A DNA stretch of 64,000 bases. It comes from a virus. Its lineage: Duplodnaviria > Heunggongvirae > Uroviricota > Caudoviricetes. The stretch spans positions 5,531 to 69,530 of the IMG/VR virus record IMGVR_UViG_2823949316_000001. One strand, given 5' to 3'. How positions within the stretch are numbered: position 1 is the first letter of the stretch; every line of letters begins with the position of its first letter. A model generated the notes under the pieces. It was not told where the DNA came from. It was given only the letters and a program-made list of their open reading frames with translations, and did not search any database. Below, one piece after another: positions 31,520 through 47,138 of this stretch. A program made the translations under genes and the position numbers.

Positions 31520-31603
31520 AGGTGTTGCAATTGATCAGAAAAGAGTAATAGAATTGCGTCACTGCCGAGGCATGAGCCAGGCAGAACTCCAGAGGAAAGG
31601 AAT

Positions 31604-32470: not shown

Positions 32471-32537
32471 TGCAATCGGGCGCCCCGGCGCCCAACCCTT
32501 AGAACAACAGCAGGCGCGGCCTGCAGGGGAAAGGAAG

Positions 32538-32831
32538 GTGAGCAAACAGAACGAGCTGGAGCTGAACAGTACCAGCACTCTCGCCCTAACGGGCAACGCC
32601 CTGGGCCACGAGTTCGGGCATCAGGACTACGGCACGCTGCAACTGAATGGCGTGCGCCTGGTGAATGAGGCCTGGCTGCTCGGCATGATTGAGCAGCGCG
32701 ACCAGCTCCTGGCGGCGCTGGAGAATGCGGAGGAGTGCCTGGCCGGCGTCGATGCAACGGACTACCCGGTCAGCGAAGAGCTTGCGCAGGTGCGCGCCGC
32801 CATCGCCGCGGTGAAGGGTGGTGCCCAATGA
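32538..32831 (+). CDS. Hypothetical protein (97 aa) ending ...KGGAQ
   Basis: GTG start after two GC hairpins + AGGGGAAAGGAAGGTG. In-frame 3' part of ORF 32409..32831. Confidence 0.5.
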   Translation: MSKQNELELNSTSTLALTGNALGHEFGHQDYGTLQLNGVRLVNEAWLLGMIEQRDQLLAALENAEECLAGVDATDYPVSEELAQVRAAIAAVKGGAQ

Positions 32832-33442
32832 GCGCCAAACCAGTGAAGGCCTTCATCATCGAGACCGATGATCCGGAAGAATCCACAATCCAATTCGCTA
32901 CCACCAACGTGGCGGCCCGCCGGCAGGGCGCCGATGAGATAGGTACCGACTTCGAGGCTGTGTCCTGCAAGCGCCTGCCGTGGGCCGATCAGTATGTGGA
33001 CAGCGGCATCCCGGCGCTGGCCTACATCGAGAACGACTGGCATGTCAGCTGCGCCAACTGCGGCGCCATGGTGCACAAGGAGTCGGGTTCGACCGACGAT
33101 GACGGCAACTACGAACCGCACGAACCTGTGTATCGCGGCGAGCATGTGTTCTGCAGTCCTGGCTGCGAGACTTCGCACGACTCCAAGGTGGCTGAGCAAA
33201 ACGCGAAGTTCGCCGCCTTCGAGAGCCGTGTGCGCGAGCTGCGGCCCGACCTGCAGTACAAGTCGTTTCGCGGTGCCTATCCGTACATCACCATGACCGG
33301 CGAGTTCATGTTCGATGGCGCCAAGTACGGCGGCTCAGTGCGTGACGAAGGTGACGGCGCGCTGTTGTGGTTCGTGGCCAATGGTGACAAGGCCGCATGG
33401 GATCAATACGAGGCCGACCAGGCCAAGTCAGGTGCCCAATGA
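32828..33442 (+). CDS. Hypothetical Cys-containing protein (204 aa) ending ...KSGAQ
   Basis: ATGA-coupled in-frame ATG in ORF 32735..33442. CANCG...CSPGC zinc-ribbon-like pairs. Confidence 0.5.
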   Translation: MSAKPVKAFIIETDDPEESTIQFATTNVAARRQGADEIGTDFEAVSCKRLPWADQYVDSGIPALAYIENDWHVSCANCGAMVHKESGSTDDDGNYEPHEPVYRGEHVFCSPGCETSHDSKVAEQNAKFAAFESRVRELRPDLQYKSFRGAYPYITMTGEFMFDGAKYGGSVRDEGDGALLWFVANGDKAAWDQYEADQAKSGAQ

Positions 33443-33657
33443 AGCCCATCCCAATCTCCGCCGCCGAGCGCATCGCGAAAGAGTTCGGCTACGACCAGGT
33501 GATCATCGTCGCCCGCAAGGTCGGCGACGATCCTGATCCGCATGGCGAGCACGTGACCACCTTCGGCGTCACCAAGGCGCATTGCGCCGTGGCGGCCAGG
33601 GCCGGTGACTTCCTCAAGTACAAGGTGATGGGCTGGGTTAAGGACGGTGAGAAATGA
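33439..33657 (+). CDS. Hypothetical protein (72 aa)
   Basis: ATGA-coupled. MKPIPISAAERIAKEFGYDQVIIVARK... Confidence 0.45.
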   Translation: MKPIPISAAERIAKEFGYDQVIIVARKVGDDPDPHGEHVTTFGVTKAHCAVAARAGDFLKYKVMGWVKDGEK

Positions 33658-34052
33658 CGCGCATGATCGAGGTGAAGGTCGCCGAGCTGAGTGGGCGCGC
33701 GCTGGACTGGGCTGTCGACGCGGTTGTTTCTGGCAGGCCGCTGGAGGTGCGCCACCACAAGAGCGGTAACGGCGAGTGGGCGTTCTTCCACGAGGACATC
33801 CCGTACCAGCAGGGGCCGGCGCCGTACTCGACCGACTGGGCGAAGGGCGGGCCGCTGATCCAGAAGTACCGTATCAGCGTGACAGGCCCAGGCCATTCGC
33901 TCGGGTTCTGGTCAGCACACATGCTCGGAAGCGAGGTCATGAGCTCCTGCCAGGGGCTCAACGCCTTGCAGGCCGCGTGCCGCCGCTTGGTCTACGAGCG
34001 CCTGGGCGACACCGTCAGCGTGCCGGCTGAGCTGGTGGGAGGTGGCGTGTGA
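33654..34052 (+). CDS. Hypothetical protein (132 aa)
   Basis: ORF-track protein. ATGA-coupled. Confidence 0.5.
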   Translation: MTRMIEVKVAELSGRALDWAVDAVVSGRPLEVRHHKSGNGEWAFFHEDIPYQQGPAPYSTDWAKGGPLIQKYRISVTGPGHSLGFWSAHMLGSEVMSSCQGLNALQAACRRLVYERLGDTVSVPAELVGGGV

Positions 34053-34243
34053 GTAGCACTCGCGTGTCATCACGCCAGATCCCATGCTGGCCTACGCCGT
34101 GCAGTAAAGAGGGATGCGTTTACCTCAATGCTGACGGCGTTTGCGGCGAGCCCAGAATTAACCGAGGGAATAGCGATGCCGCGTGCCATCGAATGAATCC
34201 GAAGGACGTCCTGGCGGCTCTGTCGATCACTCCCAGACACTGA
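34049..34243 (+). CDS. Small Cys-rich protein (64 aa)
   Basis: GTGA-coupled. 6 Cys. Confidence 0.35.
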   Translation: MSSTRVSSRQIPCWPTPCSKEGCVYLNADGVCGEPRINRGNSDAACHRMNPKDVLAALSITPRH

Positions 34244-34275
34244 ATCAGGGTGTCACAGTATCAAGATCAAGCAGC

Positions 34276-34305
34276 GGCGCGGCCTTAAAGGCTGCGCCAT
34301 TTTTC
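34276..34305 (+). terminator. Rho-independent terminator (GGCGCGGCC-TTAAA-GGCTGCGCC + ATTTTTC)
   Basis: 9-bp stem with one mismatch, followed by a T-run and then motif copy 7. Confidence 0.55.
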
Positions 34306-34326
34306 TAGGGCGCCAATAGGGCGCAA
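34305..34326 (+). repeat. TTCGGGCGC-N5-GGGCGC family motif, copy 7 (TCTAGGGCGCCAATAGGGCGCA)
   Basis: Followed by GAGGAAAGGACATG and the gene at 34345. Confidence 0.5.
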
Positions 34327-34344
34327 AATATTTGAGGAAAGGAC

Positions 34345-34761
34345 ATGTCATTCCCGAACAAAGCAGGCGATCACCAAGACACCGACGACATTCTGCGTGC
34401 CGAGCTGAAGGCGGCCGGCATCCCGACCATTCAGGAAGCGGATGGAAAAGGCCCTGAGCACATGGCCGAGCTGCTGCGCAAGATGTCGGGCGAGGTCAAA
34501 ACCTCCGTAATCGGCATCCTGCACGGCTGGAAGTTCACTCGTGCCTGGTACTACTGGGTCTGCGAAGGCCCGGGCATCGAGGTTGCGGCTGCAGAGGAAC
34601 TGCACGCCTCACATGGTCGTTCGGTTCGCGTTGACGGCCACTGCGGCTGCCCTAGCCCTCGCGAGCAGTACAAGGGGCTGGCTGTCGGTCTCTACCATGT
34701 AGACGACGCGGACGGCCTCAAGGCCCTGGCCGACACCATCCGCAAATTGGTCGGTGAATAG
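34345..34761 (+). CDS. Hypothetical protein (138 aa)
   Basis: ORF-track protein with strong RBS. Confidence 0.55.
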   Translation: MSFPNKAGDHQDTDDILRAELKAAGIPTIQEADGKGPEHMAELLRKMSGEVKTSVIGILHGWKFTRAWYYWVCEGPGIEVAAAEELHASHGRSVRVDGHCGCPSPREQYKGLAVGLYHVDDADGLKALADTIRKLVGE

Positions 34762-34846
34762 CGCAGGCGTTGCGCATATTTGAGCAAGTAAGTTACACTC
34801 GCCACAAGACAAACAACCGCCGGCATGACCGGCCAAGGAAAGGAAG

Positions 34847-35434
34847 GTGGAAGACAATATTCAGTGGGAGGAATGCGCTATTGGCGCCTTCGCTAACGTG
34901 AGCGGCATGTTCCGTTCATTCCAGGTATCCACGAAAGTCCGTGACGACAACTGCGTTCAGCCAGGTCGCGCAGGTTTTGTTGGCAAGAAGGTCGATGGTG
35001 CTGAGTACCACGTTTTCTCCGACATCTGGCTCTGGATTCCGCGCCCCGTGAAATGGAACGGCGAAGGCCTTCCACCGGTTGGGGCTGAACTCGAGTGCGG
35101 ATTTGCATGCGAAGGCTTCAAGGCCTGGCACAAAGGTGTCTGTGTCGCTATCGGCATTGATCCGGAAGACCGTGAAGAAATCTGCGTCGTGAAGAGCGGC
35201 GAGAAGATCGCCATGTACACGACCTATGGCGGCAGGATGCGCCCCATCCGCACCGCCGAGCAGATCGCGGCCGAGGAGCGCAATGAACGCATTGCAGCCA
35301 TGTGCAAGCTGGTGCAGGCGCATCCAACGTATCCAGTTCACAATCTTGACATCTCCCACTCTGCCGCCATGCGCCTCACTGTCGAAGCCCTGCACGACGC
35401 CGGCTACCGCCGTGTCGAAGGCGGTGCGCAATGA
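34847..35434 (+). CDS. Hypothetical protein (195 aa) ending ...EGGAQ
   Basis: GTG start after a GCCGG-CATGA-CCGGC hairpin + CAAGGAAAGGAAGGTG. Confidence 0.5.
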   Translation: MEDNIQWEECAIGAFANVSGMFRSFQVSTKVRDDNCVQPGRAGFVGKKVDGAEYHVFSDIWLWIPRPVKWNGEGLPPVGAELECGFACEGFKAWHKGVCVAIGIDPEDREEICVVKSGEKIAMYTTYGGRMRPIRTAEQIAAEERNERIAAMCKLVQAHPTYPVHNLDISHSAAMRLTVEALHDAGYRRVEGGAQ

Positions 35435-35721
35435 GCCTGGTCGAGCAGCGGCGCGATGCGTTCGAGCAGGCAGTCATCGAGCGCTTCAAGGAGAGCGGGT
35501 TCCTCGAGGTCGAGATCCGCGTCGAGTGTCTGGGCCGCAGCGGCGATGGCTACGCCGACAGCTCGGTCGATGCGTACTGGGCGTTCTGGAACAAGGCGCT
35601 GGACAGCGTGGTGATCGAGCTGCCGATGGTCTGGGCCGGCGGCTCCTTCAAGGAAGGCGCGATGAGCGCTGTCGGTGTGCGTGACGCAATCGAGGCCGCC
35701 GGCCTGAAGGTGGCGTCATGA
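35431..35721 (+). CDS. Hypothetical protein (96 aa)
   Basis: ATGA-coupled ORF-track protein. Confidence 0.45.
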   Translation: MSLVEQRRDAFEQAVIERFKESGFLEVEIRVECLGRSGDGYADSSVDAYWAFWNKALDSVVIELPMVWAGGSFKEGAMSAVGVRDAIEAAGLKVAS

Positions 35722-35876
35722 ACTACCTCATTGCCTTCCTGGTCGTGGTGATTGGCCAGGTCGTCATGCACCTCATCTTCCCGGACAGCCCGGTGAGCCG
35801 AATGGACGTCGTATTCGGCGCATTCTTCGGGTTACTGATGCTCTGGGGTGTGACGTGGGCGAGGGCTAAGCCATGA
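35718..35876 (+). CDS. Small membrane protein (52 aa, MNYLIAFLVVVIGQVVMHLIFP...)
   Basis: ATGA overlap at both ends. Two hydrophobic helices. Confidence 0.35.
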   Translation: MNYLIAFLVVVIGQVVMHLIFPDSPVSRMDVVFGAFFGLLMLWGVTWARAKP

Positions 35877-36139
35877 CCATCACCCGCATCACCATCACCG
35901 CAAGCCGGCCGCGCAAGCAGCCCAAGGCCGGTGACGAACGCTTCCTGAAGGGGCGCCAGGTCACGCAGATCCGCCAGCAGGAGATGCACGTCTACCCGGG
36001 CGGCAACGGGCGCATGGCCGGCGTGGTCAGCAATGGCCGCCCGGTCTGGGAGTGGGTCGATAAGGGCAGCGACCGCGACCGCACGTCCGCTGCGTGGAAG
36101 GCCAAGCGCGCCGCTGAGCTCGCGGAGCGTGCGCCATGA
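35873..36139 (+). CDS. Hypothetical protein (88 aa)
   Basis: ATGA-coupled. Confidence 0.4.
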   Translation: MTITRITITASRPRKQPKAGDERFLKGRQVTQIRQQEMHVYPGGNGRMAGVVSNGRPVWEWVDKGSDRDRTSAAWKAKRAAELAERAP

Positions 36140-36438
36140 ACCTCGACATCACTGGAGATCGCTACGGCATGCTGGTAGCCGTCCGCCGCAATCCTGACGG
36201 CCAGGGCCAGGGCGCGCAGTGGTACTTCGCCTGCGATTGCGGGCGCGAGGCCTCGCTGAGGCTCAAGGACGTGCGCCACGGCAACACGCTGTCCTGCGGC
36301 TGCATGAAGAATGCGCGAGGATACCGCTATGGCGCGCCAAAGCTGATGCAGCCAAGGCCTTGGCGCGACACGCCGACCACGTTCGCCAAGAGCTTCGAGG
36401 CGGAGTGTGCTGGTGCGCGGATTGGGGTGGCGCCATGA
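36136..36438 (+). CDS. Hypothetical zinc-finger-like protein (100 aa; CDCG...CGC)
   Basis: ATGA-coupled. Confidence 0.45.
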   Translation: MNLDITGDRYGMLVAVRRNPDGQGQGAQWYFACDCGREASLRLKDVRHGNTLSCGCMKNARGYRYGAPKLMQPRPWRDTPTTFAKSFEAECAGARIGVAP

Positions 36439-36704
36439 CCCGCGACCTCTGCATCATGGCCTGCATCTTCTGCCGGGATCCGCAGTTCCACCAGTGGGCA
36501 GGCGCCACTGCTCGCGCTCAGCGCTGGCTGTTCATCGGTGACGTCGACATGAAGGTTGACGATGGCCGGTTGGCCAAGCGCTTCATCCTGAGCCAGTGCC
36601 AGGTGAAGTCCCGCAACGAGCTGGACACCAACCCAGACGCAGCCCAGCGCTTCCACGAGCTGGTGCGCAAGCCGTTTCTGGAGTGGAAGGAGGGGAGGAC
36701 GTGA
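36435..36704 (+). CDS. Hypothetical protein (89 aa)
   Basis: ATGA-coupled in-frame ATG in ORF 36219..36704. Confidence 0.4.
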   Translation: MTRDLCIMACIFCRDPQFHQWAGATARAQRWLFIGDVDMKVDDGRLAKRFILSQCQVKSRNELDTNPDAAQRFHELVRKPFLEWKEGRT

Positions 36705-36928
36705 GCGGGACAAGGGTGTTAATTGTCGATGGATGTTCGGCCGCATACCTCGCACGCCTGATCGGCGATCTTACGGAACGTGAAGTAGGGTTCGTGCACG
36801 GCAGCAAATCGGCGCCCGCGCCTCGTCCTGGCGGCATGCTTGGCCTCGCCCCGCTTGATCAGGTTGCCGAAGTGCGGCCTCCGAGTGGATCAGCCGGCCC
36901 GCGCGACCGCTGGGGCAAGGTTCGCTGA
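36701..36928 (+). CDS. Hypothetical protein (75 aa)
   Basis: GTGA-coupled. 3' part of ORF 36596..36928. Confidence 0.35.
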   Translation: MSGTRVLIVDGCSAAYLARLIGDLTEREVGFVHGSKSAPAPRPGGMLGLAPLDQVAEVRPPSGSAGPRDRWGKVR

Positions 36929-37260
36929 TGGCCGTCCTCAACAAGCACCATCACGGCGGCCAGATCCCGCAAGGCGCGGTCAACATCATGCGCGGGACGC
37001 TGTTCGGCAACCCGTTCGTGATCGGCCGCGACGGCGATCGCACCGAGGTGGTCGAGAAGTACCGGCAGTATCTGTGGAAGCGGATTCGCGAGGACTACAC
37101 CTTCATGAATGCCGTCTACAAGCTGCACGGCCGCGACCTGTGTTGCTGCTGCGCACCGGCGGCCTGCCACGGGCACGTACTCGAGCGGGCCGCTGCCTGG
37201 CTGGAGCTGCGTTCGCGCCCAGCCGAAGAAAATCAATCAGACGCGCCCGCCGGGCGCTAG
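36928..37260 (+). CDS. Hypothetical protein (110 aa) with GNPF...C..C..CH motif (DUF4326-like)
   Basis: TGATG-coupled. ...LFGNPFVIGRDGDRTEVVEKYRQYLW...CCCCAPAACHGH... Confidence 0.5.
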   Translation: MAVLNKHHHGGQIPQGAVNIMRGTLFGNPFVIGRDGDRTEVVEKYRQYLWKRIREDYTFMNAVYKLHGRDLCCCCAPAACHGHVLERAAAWLELRSRPAEENQSDAPAGR

Positions 37261-37270
37261 GGGAAAGGAA

Positions 37271-37723
37271 GTGAGCGAACTGATGGATCACGGCATCATC
37301 GGGATGCCGTTCGATATGGCAATGGGCGACGAGCTATCGCGCCAGCAGTTCTATGCCCGGGCTCAGGCGATACTTGCCGAGCGCGACCAGCTGCGCGCCG
37401 AGGTCGAGGCTTTGCGCGAAGATGTCGAGGCGGGCGAGCAGTGGCGCGCACTGGCGCTTCAGTTTGACCGGCACCGCATGTCAGCGATTTGGCACCTGAA
37501 AGCACTGCTGGGCAGCGCCGAGCACGCAGGCGCTGCCCATGATTTCCTCGATGCGCCACCGGTGCAGGGAAATGTGTTGTGGGCTGAGATCGAGGCGCTG
37601 CGGAAGGATGCGGCGCGCTGGAATTGGTATGCGCCGCAGGTAGGCAAGTATGTCGGCGAAGGCATTGATGCCGTGAACGCAGAAGTAGACGCCGCCATGG
37701 CTGCGAAGGAGGGTGACCTGTGA
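37271..37723 (+). CDS. Hypothetical coiled-coil protein (150 aa)
   Basis: GTG start after a GCGCCC-GCC-GGGCGC hairpin + TAGGGGAAAGGAAGTG. Confidence 0.45.
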   Translation: MSELMDHGIIGMPFDMAMGDELSRQQFYARAQAILAERDQLRAEVEALREDVEAGEQWRALALQFDRHRMSAIWHLKALLGSAEHAGAAHDFLDAPPVQGNVLWAEIEALRKDAARWNWYAPQVGKYVGEGIDAVNAEVDAAMAAKEGDL

Positions 37724-37968
37724 GCTACCAACTCGAAGAAGCTGCTGCACTGCTGGATAAGGAGCTGCCAGACTGGTCGTGGTCATTCACGCGCATCCGC
37801 AACCCTGGCCACGCGGTAAGCCCGTTCGGCGAAGGGGTCGGGCTCGATCTGCTTGGCCCTGATGGAAAGCTGCGCGTGTACCAGAAGCACGGAACCTCAG
37901 CATTGGAGGCTGCGCGGCGGGCCATACCGCGCGCTCGTGCGCGCCTTGCTGGCGACTCCGGTGCTTGA
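37720..37968 (+). CDS. Hypothetical protein (82 aa)
   Basis: GTGA-coupled ORF-track protein. Confidence 0.4.
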   Translation: MSYQLEEAAALLDKELPDWSWSFTRIRNPGHAVSPFGEGVGLDLLGPDGKLRVYQKHGTSALEAARRAIPRARARLAGDSGA

Positions 37969-38016
37969 TGACCAGATGCCAAGTCAGGGGCTCAGCCTCC
38001 TGATCGCCTACTGACG

Positions 38017-38045
38017 CGCCGCCTACAAGGGCGGCGTTGTCGTTT
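38017..38045 (+). terminator. Rho-independent terminator (GCGCCGCC-TACAAG-GGCGGCG + TTGTCGTTT)
   Basis: Follows the gene at 37968 and directly abuts motif copy 8. Confidence 0.55.
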
Positions 38046-38063
38046 CGGGCGCTGGTAGGGCGC
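38041..38063 (+). repeat. TTCGGGCGC-N5-GGGCGC family motif, copy 8 (GTTTCGGGCGCTGGTAGGGCGCG)
   Basis: Heads the 240-nt structured leader of the 1295-aa gene. Confidence 0.5.
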
Positions 38064-38215
38064 GCGAGATGTTGTTGCGCGCAGGCTCAGCGGGACGTTA
38101 TGATGAGTTCTCTTTTTTGAATAACCATTGCTTTGGAGGGTCGCATCATGAAGCGCGATGAACACGATGACTTGTAGCAAGCTCGACACCGGCTTCGGTG
38201 AAAGCTGACTCCACT

Positions 38216-38246
38216 CAAAAAGCCCGCCGATGCGCGGGCTTTTTCA
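38216..38246 (+). terminator. Intrinsic terminator/attenuator hairpin inside the leader of the 1295-aa gene (AAAAAGCCCGC-CGAT-GCGGGCTTTTTCAT)
   Basis: Perfect stem + T5, 40 nt upstream of the ATG at 38286. Preceded by a 9-codon ORF (MKRDEHDDL, 38150-38179) and a CACCG-GCTT-CGGTG hairpin in a lower-GC leader. Confidence 0.55.
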
Positions 38247-38285
38247 TGGGCGGCGCGCCACCCGTCGTGATTCCACAATGGGCAC

Positions 38286-41200
38286 ATGACCACTATCGTG
38301 CCCACGTCTATGCATCGCCAAGTCCTGCTGATCAAAGCCCAGGGTGATTTCAAGCACTCTGGAAAATACTTCCTGCAGAACGGGCGGTGGCATAAATTGC
38401 ACCCGGACAAGCCGGCGCCGAAGGGCGCGCCAGTGGCGGCCCACCCGAAGGCCGCCGGTAACCACGCGCCTGTGGCGCACTTCACCGACGACGAGTGGCA
38501 GAAGCTCAAGCTGCCAGCCGAGAACAGCAACGCCGGCACCTTCAACAAGCAGCTCGAACAGCTCAAGCAGCTGAGCGACGCCGGCGACGTGACCGGCATC
38601 CTCGGCATGCAGCTCGGCACGAATACCTACGGAAAAAAGCTCTCGACGATCGCCAACCACCTGCTCGGCCTGCACGGCAGCGAGCACAAGGTCGCGCCCG
38701 GGCAGAAGGCTGGCGAGCATGCGGCTGTGCAGCAGGCGCCGGCTGAGCACAGCGCAGCGTCACCGGCCACCGAGCCCAAGGCGGAGGAGAAGCCAGCCGC
38801 CCCGGCCGAGAAGCCAGCGGCGAGCAAGCCTGACGCCATCGCCAAGTTCCAGGCCTCGCATGCGAAGCAAGGCACACCATCGACAACGGTCGATGGCAAA
38901 GACTGGTTCGTGGTCGGCACTGGCACCACCAATGACGAAGGCAAGGTCTACGCGCACCTGGCGAGCAAGACCGAAGGCCAGGTTCAGAAAAACGGCTTCG
39001 TACCGAAACAGATGGCCGACTGGATCGACCCGGCGACGATCAGCGACCCGAAGAAGACGGCAGCTGCTGCAGCATCGAAGGCGACCGGCTTGCCCATGCC
39101 CGCCTTCGTGGAAGGCAAGACCACCACTGGGGTGGTCAGCTACTACGAGGCCCAGGCCCAGAAAATCCTCGACATGGCCGCCGCCGGCGACGTGGAAGGC
39201 CTGGCGGCCATGAAGGAAGACGGCCTGAAGCCGAACAGCAAAGGCAAGGTCAGCAACACCTTCAAGGGCAAGACCGAGAACAGCAAAACGCTGCTGGCGC
39301 TGCATGCGCAGGCGGTCGTGCATGCCAAGGGTGGCGCCACCGCGGAACAGCCGGCACCAGCGGCCGAGGCCAGCACCCCTGCGCCGGCCGAGCCTTCGCC
39401 GGCCGAGAAAGTGAAGCAGGCCACGCAGGCAGCCACCGCTGCCGTGGCGCAGACGCCAGAGCACCAGGAGGCGGTCGCGATCGCCACTGCCAGCCTGGCC
39501 GGCTCGAAGGTCTCCCAGATCCCGTGGGACAGCCAGCTGCTGCCGGACAGCAACAAGAACGCAAAGAGCCACAACAAGCAGGTCGCGAAGATCCAGGCGA
39601 TGGCCGAGGCCGGTGACCTGGCTGGGCTGGAGGCGCTGAAATTCGGCACCAACACCTACGGCAAGAAGCAGGAGAAGCTGAAGCAGCTGGCGATCGCCGC
39701 GCTGCAGGAGGACGCCGCAGCGCCTGTACCTGCTGCCGCACCTGCGCCTGCCGAGAAGAAGGGCTACGACAAGTACGGCATCTTCGACAGCCTCACGAGC
39801 GACATCGACACTGCCGCCAGCGGCGGCGATGCGTCCACGCTGAAGGACATCGAATCCTACCTGAATACGCCGGCCCACAAGAACGAGCCCGGGCTGGACG
39901 CGATCAAAAAATATCTGGATAGGGCAAAGGCGTCCGTGGCGACACCGGCGGCTCCTGCCGCAGAGCAAGGCCCCAAGGAAGGCGACACCAAGCAAGGCGC
40001 CGATGGCATGCTCGTGTTCAAGGACGGCCGCTGGCACAAGCAGGCCGAGCCGGCAGCAGCCGCTCCTGAGCCTGCCCCAGCCCATCCGATCGACGCAGTC
40101 CCGATGCCGGAGCTCACCTTCTCGAGCGCCGCCAGCAACGCGAAGGTGGCGGCCGCCCTGGAGAAGCTGAAGGAACAGATCAAGGCGGAAGGGCCTGGCG
40201 CGCTCAAGGGCGTAACCAAGCACATGAAGAGCAAGGGCAAGTACATCGTCAGCCTGCCCGGCACATACGGCAGCCTGAAGGTGTACGGCTACGAGCACGC
40301 GCCCGACCATGCTGGCACCAAGGTGCACGCCTACATCGAGGCACTGAAAGCTGCAGCAGGCAAGCCCAGCAAGGCCCCCGCGAAAGCCAAGGCCAAAAAT
40401 CCTGTCGTTGACGCCGATGGCATCCAGTCCATGGACAGCTGGAAGAAGACCGGGGAGCAGGCCGGCTCGAACCCAGGCGGCAAGTTCAAGGACGAGAACG
40501 GCGTCGAGTGGTACTGCAAATTCCCGTCCGACGAGGATGTCGCCAAGTCCGAGGTGCTGGCCGCGAAGCTCTACGCTGTCGCCGGCGTGATCGGCCAGGA
40601 CGCGAAGCTGATCAAGAAGGACGGCAAGCTGGGCATCGCTTCCCGCTGGACGACCGTGAGCAAGGCTGCGCCAAAGGATCTGGCCAAGGCCGCGGGCGCG
40701 CAGTCCGGGTTCGCCGTCGACGCGTGGCTCGCGAACTGGGACGTCGTCGGCATGGGCTTCGACAACCTGCAGGTCGGGCCGGATGGCAAGGCCGTCCGCG
40801 TCGATGCCGGCGGCTCACTCACCTACCGCGCCCAGGGCGGCAAGAAGGCGTTCGGCGCCACCGTCGCCGAGATCGACAGCATGCGCGACGCGAAGGTCAA
40901 CGCCCAGTCGGCGGCCGTGTTCGGCAGCATGACCCAGGCCGACCTGACGGCATCCGTGGCGAAGGTGGCGGCGATCCCTGATTCCGCCATCAAGAACCTG
41001 GTGGAGCTGCACGGCCCAGGCGATGCGGCAGAGCGCAAGGCGCTGGCTGACACTCTGATCGCCCGCAAGAACGACCTGATCGCCAAGTATCCCAAGGCTG
41101 CCAAGACGCCGAAAAAGCGCCTTGACCCGAACAGCCTGCCGGTCGATCCGGATCGCCTGCCGAAGGCGCACGACTTCAACAACTGGCTGGGCGCCGGCAA

Positions 41201-42173
41201 GCCTCTGTCGTCGCAGCCGCACGTCAACGCCGCGAACATGGCGGTTGAGCAGGAGCTGCTGGCGCTCGCCAAGACCGGCAACCTGACCAAGCTGAAAGAC
41301 TTCCAGTTCCACGCCATCGACAAGGCCACGGGCAACCAGACCGGCCAGCTGATCCCGATCGCCGAGCATCCGTCAAAGCACGTCGTTCAGCTGCACGCCG
41401 ACCTGGTGATGGCCCTGGACGAGATCGCCAACCCGCCGCAGCCCCTGAAGGTCTTCCAGGAGACCGACGTCGGCACGATCGACCAGCTGGCCGCGGCGCT
41501 GCCGTCGAAGAAGTTCGGCACCACCGTCACCTCGGTGCACTCGAACGAGAAGCTGGGCTTCTGGGTGGTGCTGGGCACGGCGCACGGCGCAGCGAAGTTC
41601 AAACCGTCCAAGGTGATGGACTATTCGAGCGCGGCGATCGCGGCGGCGAAAGAGAAGTTCCAGCAGGCCAGCCACCTGGCCAAGCACTTCATCTACTCGG
41701 TGCAGGCATCCGGCAGCTACAACGACCTGTTCCGCGCCGGCAAGTCGCACGATCACGCCGGCAACAAGCTGTCGGACGTGGCCAAGGCCGCGCTCGAGCA
41801 CGCGACCACCATGCCGGAAGGCACCAGCTTGTACCGCTGGCAGTCGATACCTGACGACATGGTGAAGAAGATCCTGGACGCGCCGGACGGCACTGTCTTC
41901 CAGGCCACCGGCCCTATGTGCACCTCGTACCACCCAACCGGTACGGCAGGGTTCGGCAAGCACCGCGTGACCGTGCGCTACGCCAATGGCGCCAAGGCGG
42001 TAGAGAGCTTCGCATCCGGGAAGTTTTCCGGTGAAAAAGAGGTGACCACGCTGCCGAACTCGCGCTTCGTGATCCTCAAGAAGGAGATGGTGCCTGACGT
42101 CGAGCACGGGAACCCGGGCGGCAAGCGCCTGGAGCTGGAGGTGCTGATGTTACCTCCCGATATGGGCCTGTGA
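38286..42173 (+). CDS. 1295-aa polyvalent protein: N-terminal tandem repeats (GTNTYGKK-type), Ala/Pro-rich linkers, central atypical-kinase-like domain, C-terminal R-S-ExE mono-ADP-ribosyltransferase-like domain
   Basis: Uninterrupted 3.9-kb ORF. About 45-aa repeats ...AGDVTGILGMQLGTNTYGKK... / ...AGDLAGLEALKFGTNTYGKK..., plus degenerate copies. Kinase-like motifs GSNPGGKFKDENGVEWYCKF (Gly-rich loop + Lys), DAWLANWD (D-x4-N), VRVDAGG (DFG-like). C-terminal LYRW (Arg), CTSY (STS-like), SGEKEV (ExE) at ART-typical spacings. Confidence 0.8.
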   Translation: MTTIVPTSMHRQVLLIKAQGDFKHSGKYFLQNGRWHKLHPDKPAPKGAPVAAHPKAAGNHAPVAHFTDDEWQKLKLPAENSNAGTFNKQLEQLKQLSDAGDVTGILGMQLGTNTYGKKLSTIANHLLGLHGSEHKVAPGQKAGEHAAVQQAPAEHSAASPATEPKAEEKPAAPAEKPAASKPDAIAKFQASHAKQGTPSTTVDGKDWFVVGTGTTNDEGKVYAHLASKTEGQVQKNGFVPKQMADWIDPATISDPKKTAAAAASKATGLPMPAFVEGKTTTGVVSYYEAQAQKILDMAAAGDVEGLAAMKEDGLKPNSKGKVSNTFKGKTENSKTLLALHAQAVVHAKGGATAEQPAPAAEASTPAPAEPSPAEKVKQATQAATAAVAQTPEHQEAVAIATASLAGSKVSQIPWDSQLLPDSNKNAKSHNKQVAKIQAMAEAGDLAGLEALKFGTNTYGKKQEKLKQLAIAALQEDAAAPVPAAAPAPAEKKGYDKYGIFDSLTSDIDTAASGGDASTLKDIESYLNTPAHKNEPGLDAIKKYLDRAKASVATPAAPAAEQGPKEGDTKQGADGMLVFKDGRWHKQAEPAAAAPEPAPAHPIDAVPMPELTFSSAASNAKVAAALEKLKEQIKAEGPGALKGVTKHMKSKGKYIVSLPGTYGSLKVYGYEHAPDHAGTKVHAYIEALKAAAGKPSKAPAKAKAKNPVVDADGIQSMDSWKKTGEQAGSNPGGKFKDENGVEWYCKFPSDEDVAKSEVLAAKLYAVAGVIGQDAKLIKKDGKLGIASRWTTVSKAAPKDLAKAAGAQSGFAVDAWLANWDVVGMGFDNLQVGPDGKAVRVDAGGSLTYRAQGGKKAFGATVAEIDSMRDAKVNAQSAAVFGSMTQADLTASVAKVAAIPDSAIKNLVELHGPGDAAERKALADTLIARKNDLIAKYPKAAKTPKKRLDPNSLPVDPDRLPKAHDFNNWLGAGKPLSSQPHVNAANMAVEQELLALAKTGNLTKLKDFQFHAIDKATGNQTGQLIPIAEHPSKHVVQLHADLVMALDEIANPPQPLKVFQETDVGTIDQLAAALPSKKFGTTVTSVHSNEKLGFWVVLGTAHGAAKFKPSKVMDYSSAAIAAAKEKFQQASHLAKHFIYSVQASGSYNDLFRAGKSHDHAGNKLSDVAKAALEHATTMPEGTSLYRWQSIPDDMVKKILDAPDGTVFQATGPMCTSYHPTGTAGFGKHRVTVRYANGAKAVESFASGKFSGEKEVTTLPNSRFVILKKEMVPDVEHGNPGGKRLELEVLMLPPDMGL

Positions 42174-42207
42174 TGCTACAATACCTGCAAATCAGTGAGA
42201 TGCGACC

Positions 42208-42705
42208 ATGACCGACCCACGTGAAATCGAAGGCAGCCCCGAGCGGGCAGCCGATCGCGGCCGAGCCGAAGACCTCGGCTTCAGCATGGATCCGCGCCCG
42301 TCCCTGGGGAACGTGGACGTGGTTCGCGGCCTGGTGTCCGAATTCGGCTCGGCGATCGTGGGTGTGCGCAAGGACTACCACGAGGACAAGCTGACCGGCG
42401 AGCAGGCCCAGGAGCGCGTTCGCGAGCTCGCCCGCGAGTACGGCGACATCATCCTCGGCCGCAGCGAGAAATACTTCGCGCTGCCCTGGAATGACCCTTC
42501 GCGCCTTGGTCGACGCATCAAGCTCGTAGTGCCGGCAGCCGAAGGCGTCAGCGACCCGGGCGAGCTGCTGTTCGTGACGATCGGCACAAGCCTGATGGCC
42601 ATCGGCAAGGCGCACGAGGAAGAGCGCCTGTCCGACGCAGATGCCGAGCGCCACACCAAGGACATGCTCGAAGACACGGCCAGCCTGATCCTGGGGCATC
42701 GCTGA
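42208..42705 (+). CDS. Hypothetical protein (165 aa) immediately downstream of the polyvalent protein; candidate immunity/chaperone partner
   Basis: ORF-track protein 35 nt after the 1295-aa gene. Stop overlaps the NUDIX gene start (TGATG). Confidence 0.55.
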   Translation: MTDPREIEGSPERAADRGRAEDLGFSMDPRPSLGNVDVVRGLVSEFGSAIVGVRKDYHEDKLTGEQAQERVRELAREYGDIILGRSEKYFALPWNDPSRLGRRIKLVVPAAEGVSDPGELLFVTIGTSLMAIGKAHEEERLSDADAERHTKDMLEDTASLILGHR

Positions 42706-43499
42706 TGGTGCAGGTACTGGCCAAGGCCCGGGTGAAGGGCTACGCGAAAAAGGACGGCACCTACGTCAAGCCGCATGACCGGAAGGAGGCGCCGGCCGCG
42801 GCGCGCCCCGAGCAGAAGCAGCTGCGCCTGCCTACCGAGACGGACGAGATTTTGCATCATCACCCCAAGGCCGGGGAGAACGGAGCCCAGGTCGTGTTGA
42901 AGAAGCCCAGCCACCCGAGCGCGCCCAGCACCTGGCACAGCCCGACCGCCGTGGCGACCTTCGTACCTGACGGCGACGTGCCGCTGTCGATCAACGGCGT
43001 CCGGCTCAGCCCCTGGAAGGATCACCCGACCACCAATGAGGGCTGGGATTACGTCGACGGCGTCAACGACGACCTCTGGGAGCCGGCATTCATCCTGCCA
43101 CCCGGTAAGAAGGCGGCCAGCGGCGTGGTCATCGAAGAGCCTGATGGGCGTGTGTGGTTGATCCACCCGACCAACCAGTTCGGCGGGTACCACGCCAGTT
43201 TCCCCAAGGGCACGGCCGAGCCGGAGCTGTCGCTGCAGGCGAACGCCATCAAGGAGGCGTTCGAGGAGTCAGGCCTGAAGGTCGAGATCACCGGCTTGCT
43301 GGGGGACTACGAAAGGACAACGTCTGTAGCTCGAATTTACACAGCCAGGCGCGTAGGCGGAACGCCAATTGCGATGGGCTGGGAGTCGCAAGCTGTCAGC
43401 CTTTGCCCTGTCGAACACCTCTATGAGCTGCTGAATGTTTGGGCTGATCACGGAATAGCTGAAGCGATCGGCGCCGGGCCGATACCGAAAGTAAAATGA
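42705..43499 (+). CDS. NUDIX hydrolase with basic N-terminal extension (264 aa)
   Basis: Nudix box GGYHASFPKGTAEPELSLQANAIKEAFEESGLKVEI (GX5EX7[RK]EuXEEXGu pattern, Lys in place of Arg). Confidence 0.7.
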   Translation: MVQVLAKARVKGYAKKDGTYVKPHDRKEAPAAARPEQKQLRLPTETDEILHHHPKAGENGAQVVLKKPSHPSAPSTWHSPTAVATFVPDGDVPLSINGVRLSPWKDHPTTNEGWDYVDGVNDDLWEPAFILPPGKKAASGVVIEEPDGRVWLIHPTNQFGGYHASFPKGTAEPELSLQANAIKEAFEESGLKVEITGLLGDYERTTSVARIYTARRVGGTPIAMGWESQAVSLCPVEHLYELLNVWADHGIAEAIGAGPIPKVK

Positions 43500-44137
43500 A
43501 CGTAGTCAGCCGAGCAGAAGCACGCGAGCAGGGCCTAAAGCGCTACTTTACTGGGGCGCCTTGCAAGCGCGGACACATCGATGAACGCTTCACTGCCTCT
43601 ACGAGATGCGTCTCGTGCAACGCGATCATCTGTGCCGGATGGAAAGCCGGGAACAAAGACCTGAAGGATGAGCTTGATCGCGAGTACCGGAGCAACAATC
43701 GCGAGAGGCAGAAGAAAAATTCGTCCGATTGGTACAGCCGGAACCGCGACCTCACCATTGAGAGAGCCCGCCAGCATGCCCAGAAGTCGCCGGAGGCTCA
43801 GGCAAAGAAGAAGCGGGAGTGGAAATTCAGGAATCCTGATAGCTCCACGTTTCACTCCGCACTGCGTCGAGCCAGGAAAAGCGCGGCAATGCCAGCCTGG
43901 TTCGGCGAGCTTGACGAGTTCGTATGGGATGAGGCTGCTGAGCTCGCCATCCTGAGACGCGCTGCTACTGACATCAGCTGGGCGGCTGATCACATGATCC
44001 CGCTAGCTTGCAAAAAGGCCTGTGGGCTGCACGTCTGGAATAACTGCCAGGTGATCCCTGCGTACCTGAATGGACGCAAGGGCAACAAGCTGATCCTCAC
44101 TGAGCCGGACGAATGGCTTGCACGTATAAGCAAGTAA
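43496..44137 (+). CDS. HNH endonuclease (213 aa)
   Basis: Cys-rich N-terminus. C-terminal ...AADHMIPLACKKACGLHVWNNCQVIPAYLNGRKGN (H-N-H/N). ATGA-coupled. GC content is lower than neighbours. Confidence 0.7.
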   Translation: MNVVSRAEAREQGLKRYFTGAPCKRGHIDERFTASTRCVSCNAIICAGWKAGNKDLKDELDREYRSNNRERQKKNSSDWYSRNRDLTIERARQHAQKSPEAQAKKKREWKFRNPDSSTFHSALRRARKSAAMPAWFGELDEFVWDEAAELAILRRAATDISWAADHMIPLACKKACGLHVWNNCQVIPAYLNGRKGNKLILTEPDEWLARISK

Positions 44138-44186
44138 ATAGCAAGTATTCACAAGTAATGGCGTGATGCAGTTGCCTACTTGCGCA

Positions 44187-44204
44187 ATTAATCAAATTTG
44201 ATAT
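44187..44204 (+). promoter_or_regulatory. Degenerate operator-family palindrome TTAATCAAATTTGATATA with flanking -35 TTGCGC / -10 TATACG-like elements
   Basis: Intergenic between the HNH gene and the gene at 44247. Same core (TCAAATTTGA) as the leftward operators. Confidence 0.4.
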
Positions 44205-44246
44205 ACGCTAGCCTCATTCCGCTCAACAACGAATGAGGCTTTCTGT

Positions 44247-44600
44247 ATGTGGATCTGTTTAAACAATGCTTTCCTGTCGATCATCGAGCCCGTCAAGGGC
44301 GGCGACAAGCTGCGCGTTCGCGCTCGCCGCAAGGGTGACATCGAGGCGGTCTTCCCGGGCGCCAAGGTCGAGCGCACCCCGGGCCGTGACTATCTCTACC
44401 GCGCCGAGCTGCCGCGCGAGCAGGTGGTCGCGGCCATCGCCAGCCAGGTGGCCGGCATCAGCTACCCGAACTTCAAGGACAGCGTGAAGAACAAGCCCCT
44501 GCACGATGCCTATGCCCGCTTCTGGGGCATCATGGCCAACCTGCAGGAGCTGCGCCCTTACTCGACCACCAAGCGCCGCGGCCAGGGAGCGTTCCTGTGA
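44247..44600 (+). CDS. Hypothetical protein (117 aa)
   Basis: ORF-track protein with GAGG RBS. Stop overlaps the MTase start (GTGA). Confidence 0.5.
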   Translation: MWICLNNAFLSIIEPVKGGDKLRVRARRKGDIEAVFPGAKVERTPGRDYLYRAELPREQVVAAIASQVAGISYPNFKDSVKNKPLHDAYARFWGIMANLQELRPYSTTKRRGQGAFL

Positions 44601-46246
44601 ACGCCGTCGTAGGCCAGGTGACTGGCGAAATCATCGAGGACGTGTCCGAGTTCTTCGCGCCGATGTCGGCTGACTTGGTGGACAGCCTGATCGGCCAGTA
44701 CAACGCCGCCCGCGGCAACGTCGAGGCCCTGGCGGCTGCCGTGCGCGCCGGCCAGAACGCCTCGGTGCTGCACTACTTTGTCGAGGGCAACGTGCGCGAA
44801 GAGCGCTACACCCTGCCGAAGACGGTCGAGGCCCTGTTCCGCACCGAGGGCGCCATCGCTCAGCTCAACGCCGACTTCTGGAACCGTGCGCTGCGCCTGA
44901 CCGACGTGCTCGACTACATGCCGCAGAAGCGCCGCGACGAGTGGTTCGAGCAGATCCGCAACCCGGAAGGGCGCAAGGCCGGCCGGCACACCAGCGACAC
45001 GGAGCTGCCGCCGCTGCCTGAGTTCGAGGAAGCCACTGTGCGCTCGACCCTGGCCGGCCTGCTGCACAACCGTGCCCAGTTCCTGGCCGAGCGTGTCGAC
45101 GGCATCTTCCGCGCGCTGAGCCGTGCCCACGTGACCAACCAGCCCCAGGGCTTTGGCAAGCGCATGATCATCGCCAACGTGTTCGGCTACCAGACCCACG
45201 GCCACATCAACGACCTGCGCTGCGTGATCGCCAAGTTCATGGGGCGCGACGAGCCGAAGCACGGTGCCACTGACCCAGTGATCAAGGCCGCCCGCCGCCA
45301 GAACGGCCAGTGGATGAACGTCGACGGTGGGGCTCTCCGGATCCGTGTTTATGGCGGCGTCGGTACCGCGCACCTCGAGGTGCACCCGGACATGGCCTGG
45401 CGCCTGAATGCCATCCTGGCCAGCCTGCACCCCCTCGCTATCCCGGCCGAGTTCCGCACCAAGCCGAAGCGCGTGAAGAAGATCAAGGACTTCGAGCTCT
45501 TCGACCGTCCGCTGCCGTTCGCGGTGATCCATCTGCTGGCAGGCATGCGCCAGGTTCGTGAGCGCATCGAACCAGCCTATCCGGAGCGCTACCGCGACGT
45601 GCCGAACGCGCTCAGCTGGGACTACGGCCAGCACGAGAAAGCGGCAATGGCGGAAGCCGAGAAGGTGCTGATGTCCATCGGCGCGGTGAAGGAGAAGCAC
45701 TACTGGCAGTTCGACTACAACCCGCAAGAGGTGCTTGATCAGGTGGTGTGCTCCGGCTGCATCCCCGACCACAAGTCGCACCAGTTCTACCCGACCCCGG
45801 CGTCAGTGGCCGAGAAGGCGATCGAGCTGGCCGAGATCCAGCCAGGGCATCAAGTGCTGGAGCCGAGCGCCGGCCAGGGTGGTCTGGCTGACCTGATCCC
45901 TGAACTTGCCTTCACCAGCTGCGTCGAGATCAGCCCGCTGCACTGCCAGATCCTCAAGGCCAAGGGCCACAACGTGATCGAGGCCGACTTCCTCAAGTGG
46001 CGCGGGATCGGCGCGTTCCACCGGGTGGTGATGAACCCGCCTTTCAGCGAGGGCCGCTGGCAGGCGCACCTGCAGCACGCCGCGACCATGCTCTACCCGG
46101 GCGGCCGTCTCGTCGCCATCCTGCCTGCCAGCGCCAAGGGCAAGCAGGTGCTGGAAGGCTTCGACCTGCAGTGGTCGCCGGTGATGGAGAACCAGTTCGC
46201 CGGAACGAGCGTGGACGTGGTGATCCTGACCGCTACCCGCCTGTAA
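44597..46246 (+). CDS. Gamma-class N6-adenine DNA methyltransferase fused to an N-terminal ~350-aa domain of unknown function (549 aa)
   Basis: C-terminal FYPTP ... VLEPSAGQGGL (motif I) ... VVMNPPFSEG (motif IV, NPPF) in gamma-class order. Confidence 0.8.
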   Translation: MNAVVGQVTGEIIEDVSEFFAPMSADLVDSLIGQYNAARGNVEALAAAVRAGQNASVLHYFVEGNVREERYTLPKTVEALFRTEGAIAQLNADFWNRALRLTDVLDYMPQKRRDEWFEQIRNPEGRKAGRHTSDTELPPLPEFEEATVRSTLAGLLHNRAQFLAERVDGIFRALSRAHVTNQPQGFGKRMIIANVFGYQTHGHINDLRCVIAKFMGRDEPKHGATDPVIKAARRQNGQWMNVDGGALRIRVYGGVGTAHLEVHPDMAWRLNAILASLHPLAIPAEFRTKPKRVKKIKDFELFDRPLPFAVIHLLAGMRQVRERIEPAYPERYRDVPNALSWDYGQHEKAAMAEAEKVLMSIGAVKEKHYWQFDYNPQEVLDQVVCSGCIPDHKSHQFYPTPASVAEKAIELAEIQPGHQVLEPSAGQGGLADLIPELAFTSCVEISPLHCQILKAKGHNVIEADFLKWRGIGAFHRVVMNPPFSEGRWQAHLQHAATMLYPGGRLVAILPASAKGKQVLEGFDLQWSPVMENQFAGTSVDVVILTATRL

Positions 46247-46249
46247 TGC

Positions 46250-46279
46250 TTGCTCATATCTGAGCAACACAGGTACAAT
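46250..46279 (+). promoter_or_regulatory. Sigma70-like promoter (-35 TTGCTC, 18-nt spacer, -10 TACAAT) overlapping the palindrome TTGCTCATATCTGAGCAA
   Basis: Directly after the MTase stop. Followed by a GCCGGGC-AAC-GCCCGGC hairpin, AGGGGAAAGGAAGGTG and the gene at 46327. Confidence 0.55.
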
Positions 46280-46326
46280 TCAGCCAACACAACAGAGCCG
46301 GGCAACGCCCGGCAGGGGAAAGGAAG

Positions 46327-46845
46327 GTGAAATTAGTAGAGTTGCTGGCACGGAAGCTGGGCGAGTGGCCTGATAGCTGCATGGTTATCGCCCAGGACTT
46401 AAGCGGCATAGTATTTCTTTGGAAGTATCAAGACATCGAGTTCGAGGGTAATGGGTGGCGTCACCGAACGAACATGGGTCTTTGTGATTTCGAGTATGAA
46501 ATCGGCCAGCACGAGACTTGCACTGACCACGCCACCGCCATCGTCACCCGCGAGCAGTGGCAGGCCGAGCGTGATCGACTGATCGCCAGCGGCGAAGAGC
46601 TGCCCACCCATCGCATCGTCGGTGACGCCAACGATGCCGAGGGCGCGCTGGCCGGCGCCCAGGCCGAGGCCGACACCTGGGAGCAGCGCGCCGTCAAAGA
46701 GGCAACCCGCGTCGTCGAGCTGGAGGCGGAGCGAGCCGATCTCGTAGCGGCACTGGAAGCCATTATCACCATTTCCGACCGCAAGCACGACGCATGGGAT
46801 CACGCCAAGGCGCTGATTGCCCGCGTCAAGGGCGGTGCGCAATGA
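46327..46845 (+). CDS. Hypothetical protein (172 aa) with a low-GC N-terminal domain and a C-terminal coiled coil ending ...VKGGAQ
   Basis: GTG start. The first ~200 nt are markedly AT-richer than the rest, suggesting a chimeric gene. Confidence 0.5.
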   Translation: MKLVELLARKLGEWPDSCMVIAQDLSGIVFLWKYQDIEFEGNGWRHRTNMGLCDFEYEIGQHETCTDHATAIVTREQWQAERDRLIASGEELPTHRIVGDANDAEGALAGAQAEADTWEQRAVKEATRVVELEAERADLVAALEAIITISDRKHDAWDHAKALIARVKGGAQ

Positions 46846-47138
46846 ACCATCATCTCCTGATCGGGCAGAAGCTCCAGCAGCTGCTGGATCTTGCCGAGCG
46901 CGCGCGGCAGAACACCGACCTGCTCAGCAACCACTTCGAGAGCAAAGTCCCGCAACGCCTGACCGACCACTTGGCAGCGCTGCTTGATCACCAGCAGAAG
47001 ATCATGGCAGCGGACGGTGGCGAGAGCGCCGGCGCCGACTACATGACGTCAATCGATGCTGATATCCGCAAGGTAAAGCACGCCCTCACCGCGTATGTTC
47101 CTGAAGCGGCGGGCCTGGTGAGCGGAGGTGCGCAATGA
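46842..47138 (+). CDS. Hypothetical protein (98 aa) ending ...SGGAQ
   Basis: ATGA-coupled in-frame ATG in ORF 46794..47138. Confidence 0.45.
   Translation: MNHHLLIGQKLQQLLDLAERARQNTDLLSNHFESKVPQRLTDHLAALLDHQQKIMAADGGESAGADYMTSIDADIRKVKHALTAYVPEAAGLVSGGAQ

Follow-up and report, generated by a model that had tools for sequence, protein, structure and literature searches.

Translational coupling through an ATGA overlap, in which the Shine–Dalgarno (SD) sequence lies inside the upstream gene, is familiar from the trp genes of Escherichia coli and from many phage operons. The requirements for re-initiation at overlapping stop and start codons are among the subjects treated in PMC2268962. Gene boundaries also figure in two views of phage mosaicism, one invoking homologous exchange at short boundary sequences and the other illegitimate recombination with subsequent selection for genes that remain intact (PMC3029335; PMC3974807). 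Short boundary (“linker”) sequences have been proposed to target homologous recombination between the mosaic modules of lambdoid phages (PMC3029335, PMC3974807), and in the cluster I mycobacteriophages the product of the inserted gene 68 of Island3 repeats the C-terminal 18 residues of the gene upstream (PMC3029335). T4-type phages carry promoter/stem-loop cassettes (PeSLs) that flank small accessory open reading frames (ORFs) and mediate modular shuffling; these are intergenic promoter–terminator units, tens of base pairs long, for which recombination and mini-circles have been demonstrated (PMC2839356, PMC4122927). Here we describe a window of 64,000 nt (the whole stretch analysed, i.e., positions 5,531–69,530 of the virus record IMGVR_UViG_2823949316_000001; coordinates below are those of the window) in which one short sequence, read as a GGAQ tail in protein and as an SD plus start codon in RNA, recurs at five gene junctions, all on the plus strand. 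We conclude that this repeated sequence is probably a translational-coupling junction that was multiplied by descent. As a junction it is ordinary and strong and marks points of gene swapping, and the evolutionary role that the initial annotation gave it, a linker from which the mosaic of this phage is made, finds only partial support and is not peculiar to this sequence.

The phage is distantly related to Dolphis, a 93.5-kb temperate phage of Pseudomonas putida on which a literature search found nothing. A megablast search of INPHARED matched only Dolphis, Jeremy, ST4, and U7, at 9–23% query coverage and 76–79% identity.

Five gene junctions with one sequence

At each junction (J1–J5), the tail of one ORF supplies the SD and ATG of the next. 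J1 (32811..32831, GTGAAGGGTGGTGCCCAATGA) joins g32538, ending ..AVKGGAQ, to g32828; J2 (33422..33442, GCCAAGTCAGGTGCCCAATGA) joins g32828, ending ..AKSGAQ, to g33439; J3 (35414..35434, GTCGAAGGCGGTGCGCAATGA) joins g34847, ending ..RVEGGAQ, to g35431; J4 (46825..46845, GTCAAGGGCGGTGCGCAATGA) joins g46327, ending ..RVKGGAQ, to g46842; and J5 (47118..47138, GTGAGCGGAGGTGCGCAATGA), with the SD GGAGGTG, joins g46842, ending ..LVSGGAQ, to g47135. The upstream stops end at 32831, 33442, 35434, 46845, and 47138, and each next ORF is opened by the ATG within CAATGA, exactly as the initial annotation had placed them. Its further statement that the upstream proteins end in GGAQ is right for four junctions (J1, J3, J4, and J5), the protein at J2 ending in K-S-G-A-Q. 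That these genes are otherwise unrelated is true insofar as BLASTP similarity among the upstream proteins is limited to the last 7–12 residues, and untrue of g32538 and g46327, which share a C-terminal domain of ~45 aa. Paralogy of the upstream genes was rejected as a whole explanation of the repeat, given that the similarity is confined to these last residues and the domain is common to this pair alone.

When aligned on ATGA, all five sites contain the 12-nt core GGTGC[G/C]CAATGA; 5′ of the core a weaker conservation extends to about −21 (GTs-rAr-GGn), and the flanks farther out are at background identity. The near-identical stretch at the boundaries measures 12–21 bases, and the junction pattern in degenerate form is GGNGGTGCSCAATGA. 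J3 and J4 share an identical 15-mer (GGCGGTGCGCAATGA), which agrees with the two identical copies first reported; the 12-mer GGTGCCCAATGA is common to J1 and J2, and the 12-mer GGTGCGCAATGA to J3, J4, and J5. With up to one mismatch allowed, GGTGCGCAATGA has seven matches in the window, all on the plus strand, against 0.68 ± 0.87 expected (0 of 100 shuffles reached seven), and GGNGCNCAATGA has six matches on the plus strand and none on the minus strand. A chance origin of the repeated junction was rejected on these counts and on this strand bias. Matches that are not junctions were also seen: a sixth near-match at 35275–35286 is a chance occurrence, out of frame within g34847 (protein ..AEERNER..), and the match at 5098 is without ATGA.

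On the source contig (Logan SRR10143751_117, 92.6 kb), genes called independently end and start exactly at the five overlaps, and the N-termini of homologues confirm the starts of g32828 and g33439. The flanking ORFs have a GC content at third codon positions (GC3) of 0.67–0.88. Their coding status is further backed by PHROG matches for g32828, g33439, g34847, g35431, and g46327 and by homologues for g46842, while g47135 and g32538 are backed by GC3 and gene calls only.

The junction carries an extended SD, AAGGnGGTG (or GGAGGTG), complementary to the 3′ end of 16S rRNA (AAGGAGGTG) over up to 8–9 nt. At all five sites, GGTG stands at a fixed 4 nt from the ATG, and the ATG overlaps the upstream TGA (ATGA, a 4-nt overlap). 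Predicted pairing to the anti-SD GAUCACCUCCUUA is −10.9, −6.7, −11.6, −11.2, and −13.9 kcal/mol at J1–J5, respectively, compared with a mean of −7.3 (standard deviation 2.8) at 53 other gene starts in the window and a mean of −4.9 (5th percentile −10.0) at random positions; some of the strongest predicted SD pairings of the window are found at these junctions. As far as sequence can indicate, these features bear out the initial reading of the motif as an SD with a coupled start. In the mechanism that we propose, the extended SD (G/A)AAGGnGGTG is written in the last 5–7 codons of the upstream gene and the start ATG of the downstream gene lies four bases past it, overlapping the upstream TGA in CAATGA, so that a ribosome ending the first gene would be placed to begin the second. 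No common RNA secondary structure was found at the five junctions (fold z-scores −2.0 to +0.3), and no Rfam family matched the sites.

The GGAQ tail

The tail ..(V)(K/E)GGAQ would be mainly the upstream-frame reading of the RNA signal GGN GGT GCN CAA TGA, and comparison with homologues suggests that it is mostly a by-product of this signal. Homologues of g34847 are conserved to ..AGYRR/K and then end in QEEGK, VTP, QESST, or EAS, each tail having an SD of its own and standing ahead of a different downstream gene. Likewise, g32828 orthologues with 76% identity terminate in ..KEAAHG with an AAGGAGG-type junction. The tail is not kept in the homologues of these two genes, and it is kept for g46842 in its one non-identical homologue (in L348, 53% identity), which retains ..LVKAGAQ. 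In the background set, 844 unselected ATGA junctions drawn from GC-rich phage loci, GGTG stands at spacing 4 in 39, and 23 of these 39 read G-G-A-x-stop, GGAA-stop being commonest.

Leader repeats and the multiplicity of the junction

The five copies occupy the opening one or two junctions in each of three units, and each unit is headed by a 38-nt leader repeat (family D7). At 32503..32540 (+), the leader consists of AACAACAG, a hairpin, and AGGGGAAAGGAAGGTG, which holds the ribosome-binding site (RBS) and GTG start of g32538; the same module is found at 34812..34849 (+), at the start of g34847, and at 46292..46329 (+), at the start of g46327. Upstream of the second and third copies lie sigma-70-like promoter candidates that were recognized by pattern only, TTGCGC-N18-TACACT at 34770..34799 (+; palindromic TTGCGCAtatTTGAGCAA; unlisted by the promoter scanner) and TTGCTC-N18-TACAAT at 46250..46279 (+; palindromic TTGCTCAtatcTGAGCAA). 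No promoter was found in the 68-nt gap before the leader copy at 32503, which sits downstream of g31604 and of a promoter-like site at 31525..31554 (+; TTGCAA-N18-TAGAAT) ahead of g31604 and g32538; g32538 is the second gene after that site and the first after the leader copy. Because g32538, g34847, and g46327 are each headed by the leader and end in the motif, they share both a 5′ start context and a 3′ end.

J1 and J4 differ mainly at third codon positions, a pattern suggestive of old common descent. Both g32828 and g46842 are bordered by identical 12-mers (J1 = J2 and J4 = J5), as is expected where an inserted gene has brought a copy of the junction with it. In the background set, the spacer C[G/C]CA occurs in 3 of the 39 GGTG-N4-ATGA junctions (7.7%) vs. 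5 of 7–8 in the window; for 5 of 8, the binomial probability at this background is about 1e-4 (a post hoc calculation), and so constraint alone appears insufficient to produce five copies. The most likely source of the multiplicity is copying by descent within the repeated promoter–leader cassettes of accessory genes. The five copies would then not be independent inventions and would have spread by duplication or recombination near gene ends, events in which the junction would remain attached to whichever flanking gene survives.

Several points weigh against this interpretation. Neighboring junctions may carry identical variants by chance (p about 0.2) and, since the sequences beyond the ~21-nt motif resemble one another no more than background, descent is untraceable past the motif except for J1/J4. 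The five copies could instead represent a lineage-specific translational preference, to which it may be countered that other ATGA junctions of the same genome have GCA, CCA, or AAA as last codon. Moreover, because the g46842 tail is kept in a homologue of 53% identity, the tail is not always a disposable by-product.

Looser copies of the leader were seen at 22058, 31594, and 37262 (+) and at 12422, 14045, 14695, 53798, and 54618 (−). The family, shared with Dolphis, L029, L033, and L304, has the form ACAACA(G), GC-rich hairpin, (T/C)A(A/G)GGAAAGGAA, with a start codon that is often GTG, and it heads the first gene after intergenic gaps; its hairpin could stabilize the mRNA at its 5′ end or control access to the RBS. 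In the TTGCkC-N18-TACAmT sites at 34770–34799 and 46250–46279, the −35 region lies inside an inverted repeat (TTGCTCAnnnnTGAGCAA) that looks like a candidate operator overlapping the promoter; a related repeat occurs at 15674–15707 and 16480–16513. A direct repeat, GGGCGC-N5-GGGCGC (consensus TTCGGGCGCnnnT[A/C]GGGCGC), has seven plus-strand copies vs. 0.22 expected per strand (at 22034, 23581, 28803, 31503, 34308, 38047, and 48160), four of which directly follow a terminator-like hairpin with a T-run and precede a promoter-like site. It recurs in Dolphis (12 plus-strand copies, including a cluster at 40.1–40.55 kb adjacent to the integrase) and in L033, L029, and L304, and it may be bound by a phage regulator or antiterminator.

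Distribution in IMG/VR and in related loci

The exact 17-mer GGCGGTGCGCAATGAGC was found in 58 IMG/VR loci, and 43 of its 59 matches are true junctions, in 32 distinct contexts. Control 17-mers in which only the last codon differs were as common or commoner: GGCGGTGCGGCATGAGC (GGAA-stop) occurs in at least 120 IMG/VR loci, with 116 junctions in 105 contexts among the matches listed, and GGCGGTGCGGAATGAGC (GGAE-stop) in 49 loci, with 38 junctions in 36 contexts. The exact 17-mer is not special across IMG/VR.

In 65 related loci (1.16 Mb), the motif has only a handful of scattered copies. The rule among these relatives is GGTG at a spacing of 4–5 ahead of ATGA or GTGA, and some have a recurrent junction of their own, GAGGCnGCATGA (the GAGGCNGCATGA junctions). 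Similar tails occur in Dolphis gp106 (VEGGAA-stop), L029 (VEGGAE-stop), and L033 (GGEQ-stop and GGGQ-stop), and a 3-kb stretch of L304 holds two CAATGA junctions (DGGAQ-stop and GGGDQ-stop) together with an EGGAQ-stop tail at a CAGTGA overlap. Orthologous boundaries in the closest relatives differ, however: the g32828 orthologues of 76% identity (L056–L067) have other junctions at both ends, GGGGGGTGTGTGATGG and AAGGAGGCCGCCCATGGCTAG, and g33439 homologues in L013/L301, L302, and L303 also use other junctions. The proposal that a special, conserved linker explains mosaic assembly and should be found at the gene boundaries of related genomes is not supported, in view of these boundaries, the scarcity of copies in the relatives, and the last-codon controls.

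One IMG/VR locus (L125, 7645–8116; IMGVR_UViG_3300024040_000024) has two exact copies of the 17-mer 455 bp apart around one gene, with similar upstream tails (TPAAxxEGGAQ-stop) and similar downstream N-termini (MSRV..). This arrangement probably arose by tandem duplication of a gene, the junction being copied with it.

Mosaic breakpoints at the junctions

Homology breakpoints do coincide with the motif. At J2, g33439 follows GGTGnnCAATGAAGCC in the window, L033, and L304, the gene upstream being a different one in each, and at J5 the junction of g46842 is retained while the downstream genes of the window and of L348 (tail ..LVxxGAQ-stop) are unrelated. Among the IMG/VR loci with the exact 17-mer, homology between L102 and L124 ends immediately past it, that between L076 and L096 begins 3 nt ahead of it, and L079 and L123 share only ~35 nt around it, L098 being of recombinant type. 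The expectation that the motif would be seen at variable boundaries is borne out by these cases and fails for most joints around the same genes, which use other junctions. In the g33439 family, for which metagenomes offer ~45 different upstream neighbors, the GGTGnnCAATGA-type junction is kept in three close relatives and most of the upstream junctions are unrelated to the motif. The control 17-mers give the same one-flank-only pairs, i.e., pairs that are similar only upstream or only downstream, and the association with breakpoints is not specific to the motif compared with control junctions.

The junctions mark mosaic joints because only those gene-end exchanges survive that preserve the SD and the start, and they may in addition supply 12–17 bp of microhomology; that they cause the swaps is unproven. 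The identical core of 12–15 bp (at most 17 bp) is below the minimal segments for efficient pairing of 23–27 bp for Red-beta and 31–34 bp for RecA (cited in PMC3945230).

The g33439 family itself (33439–33657 in the window; L301–L347), with its ~45 upstream neighbors and junction types, constitutes a natural experiment on gene-boundary evolution.

Alternative explanations

The alternative closest to the initial annotation is that the 12–17-mer is a recombination linker, a conserved boundary at which homologous or microhomology exchange, perhaps driven by the recombinase of the phage itself, swaps genes with coupling kept, and whose multiplicity is both cause and consequence of such exchange. 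It draws on the breakpoints lying exactly at the motif (L102/L124, L076/L096, and L079/L098/L123), on the g33439 junction kept behind three upstream genes and the g46842 junction kept ahead of two downstream genes, on the placement of g32828 and g46842 each between identical 12-mers, on a scar in L304 that looks like a 9-nt duplication at the gp106 junction, on the excess of one variant within the genome, and on the Island3 precedent (PMC3029335). We nonetheless consider it unlikely, as the control 17-mers are equally frequent and yield the same one-flank-only pairs, the relatives have other sequences at orthologous boundaries, most of the ~45 g33439 contexts have unrelated junctions, the core is shorter than the Red-beta and RecA minima, and the synonymous-site differences between J1 and J4 fit old divergence rather than recent exchange. 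An extended version, in which the junction GGnGGTGCnCAATGA, the leader (hairpin-GGAAAGGAAGGTG), and the promoter/terminator modules are interchangeable connectors at which short-homology recombination, possibly by a phage recombinase, inserts or replaces accessory genes, is speculative and strikes us as rather improbable. If true, it would mean that connectors are homogenized within a genome, in a temperate-phage counterpart of T4 PeSL shuffling reaching down to coupled gene pairs, and the shuffling of accessory genes in a group of temperate phages would gain a concrete substrate that can be tested. Pure convergence, by which each junction independently reached the same optimum (GGTGCSCAATGA) because SD, spacing, ATGA, and GC-rich codons leave few sequences, is also doubtful to a marked degree. 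It would account for the prevalence of GGAx-stop tails at GGTG-N4-ATGA junctions of unrelated phages, for the 32 IMG/VR contexts of the 17-mer beside the 105 (among the matches listed) and 36 of its sister variants, and for the relatives' own recurrent GAGGCNGCATGA junctions. It sits poorly with the 5 of 8 copies against the 7.7% background, with a favored last codon that elsewhere is GCA and not CAA (275 vs. 50), and with the sharing of the junction type by 3 of the 6 closest g33439 relatives despite different upstream genes.

Explanations that assign the repeat a function other than coupling fare worse. As an operator for a trans-acting factor, GGUGCSCAAUGA might be bound or cleaved by a translational repressor or RNase of the phage, for which RegA and RegB of T4 offer a comparison, or might be recognized as DNA by a methyltransferase or endonuclease; the spacer is indeed conserved beyond the needs of SD pairing, all copies lie on one strand in two accessory-gene clusters, and the phage encodes several DNA methyltransferases. 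Yet no candidate RNA-binding regulator was identified, the junctions share no RNA structure, and in relatives that carry the same genes the spacer is free to vary, which makes this reading very improbable. Its methylation or restriction-site form was set aside, as the palindrome TGCGCA is present in only 3 of the 5 copies and all copies are fixed in strand and frame. That ..GGAQ-COOH is a functional tag (a degron, processing, or conjugation signal) on several small phage proteins, comparable to the ..GGQ tail of Pup, is to our minds extremely improbable. Variation among the five copies at third positions of Gly and Ala codons (GGT/GGC/GGA and GCC/GCG) and the tail kept in the L348 homologue of g46842 would suit such a tag, whereas the different tails of g34847 and g32828 homologues, the last residue A, E, Q, S, R, or K in relatives while the RNA pattern stays, the invariance of the rare codon GGT where it forms GGTG, and a motif position that is fixed to the downstream ATG and not to any protein domain all speak against it.

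Genes flanking the junctions

In the first unit, g32538 (32538..32831, +; 97 aa) has its GTG start inside the leader motif and a C-terminal ~45 aa homologous to the C-terminus of g46327. It is followed by g32828 (32828..33442, +; 204 aa; phrog_8514), with GGTGCCCAATGA on both flanks, and by g33439 (33439..33657, +; 72 aa; phrog_38816, MKPIPIS..). In the second, g34847 (34847..35434, +; 195 aa; phrog_3483 and, in its C-terminal part, phrog_7798) likewise starts with GTG in the leader motif, and g35431 (35431..35721, +; 96 aa), downstream of J3, has weak matches to phrog_343 and PF26207. The third comprises g46327 (46327..46845, +; 172 aa; N-terminal part of phrog_7798; GTG start in the leader motif, the Logan caller placing the start at 46381), g46842 (46842..47138, +; 98 aa), with GGTGCGCAATGA on both flanks, and g47135 (47135..47356, +; 73 aa), which lies downstream of J5 and itself ends in a related GGGGGTGGGAAGTGA junction (..GGGK-stop).

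The domain common to g32538 and g46327 (..QRDxLxAALE..AxIAxVKG) is detectable through a 243-aa protein of L033, in which it is internal (E = 5e-11 to g46327 and 0.006 to g32538), and is also found in Dolphis gp106. This ~45-aa helical segment (QRDeLLaALE ... AW..A..aIA.vKG) thus occurs in leader-headed proteins that are otherwise different, C-terminal in the window genes (32538–32831 and 46327–46845) and internal in the relatives (L033 1576–2307; Dolphis gp106, L003 34694–35248). Moreover, a single PHROG (7798) is matched in its N-terminal half by g46327 and in its C-terminal half by g34847, and the shared segment together with these split matches indicates domain-level mosaicism.

A search for homologues of g46842 yielded only an identical protein and one homologue of 53% identity. 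The identical 98-aa protein, annotated as “putative transcriptional regulator,” is encoded in NCBI on a 1.44-Mb contig labeled Microvirga lupini; the element may be an alphaproteobacterial prophage, or the assembly may be mixed, the nearest sequenced phages infecting Pseudomonas. Between the junction clusters, an ORF of 1295 aa (38286–42173) has 45–50% identity over its C-terminal ~700–1000 aa to Dolphis gp117 (annotated ADP-ribosyltransferase), its N-terminal ~270 residues having no match in the relatives retrieved; genes for NUDIX, DUF4942 endonuclease, and metallophosphoesterase proteins follow downstream. Searches with the 1295-aa protein found no close relatives in genome and viral contig collections, and among genome contigs carrying the endonuclease only three distant loci were found, none of them informative.

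Comparison with known systems

A translation signal inside coding sequence shapes the C-termini of proteins, here as GGAx tails, and such signals yield look-alike “motifs” that can be mistaken for protein tags or the ends of mobile elements, a point of use for annotation and for repeat mining in phage genomes. With known ATGA coupling systems, the junction shares the 4-nt overlap, an SD 4–9 nt upstream in the last codons, and the setting in strings of small co-oriented genes; the mechanism would be no different, and what is odd is that one 12–15-mer version recurs five times in one genome. The lambdoid boundary sequences are alike in that a short sequence stands at several gene boundaries where homology between genomes breaks off. 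Here, however, the sequence can be accounted for in full as a translational signal, is only 12–17 bp long, is absent from the orthologous boundaries of relatives, and is no different from control junctions. The Island3 insertion resembles the pairs g32538/g32828 and g46327/g46842 in that a small inserted gene ends in the tail and junction of its upstream neighbor, while its repeat of ~50 bp is clearly homologous at the DNA level and the repeat here amounts to 12 identical base pairs and 5–6 residues. The PeSLs, finally, find their likeness in the repeated intergenic modules around variable small accessory genes of this phage, i.e., terminator-like hairpin, GGGCGC-N5-GGGCGC, sigma-70-like promoter, and hairpin–RBS leader; the GGAQ junction differs from them in being intragenic or overlapping and much shorter, exchange is known for the PeSLs only, and the phage belongs to a Dolphis-like temperate family. 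The closest known kinds are ATGA coupling and the lambdoid boundary sequences for the junction and the T4 PeSL cassettes for the intergenic modules that surround it.

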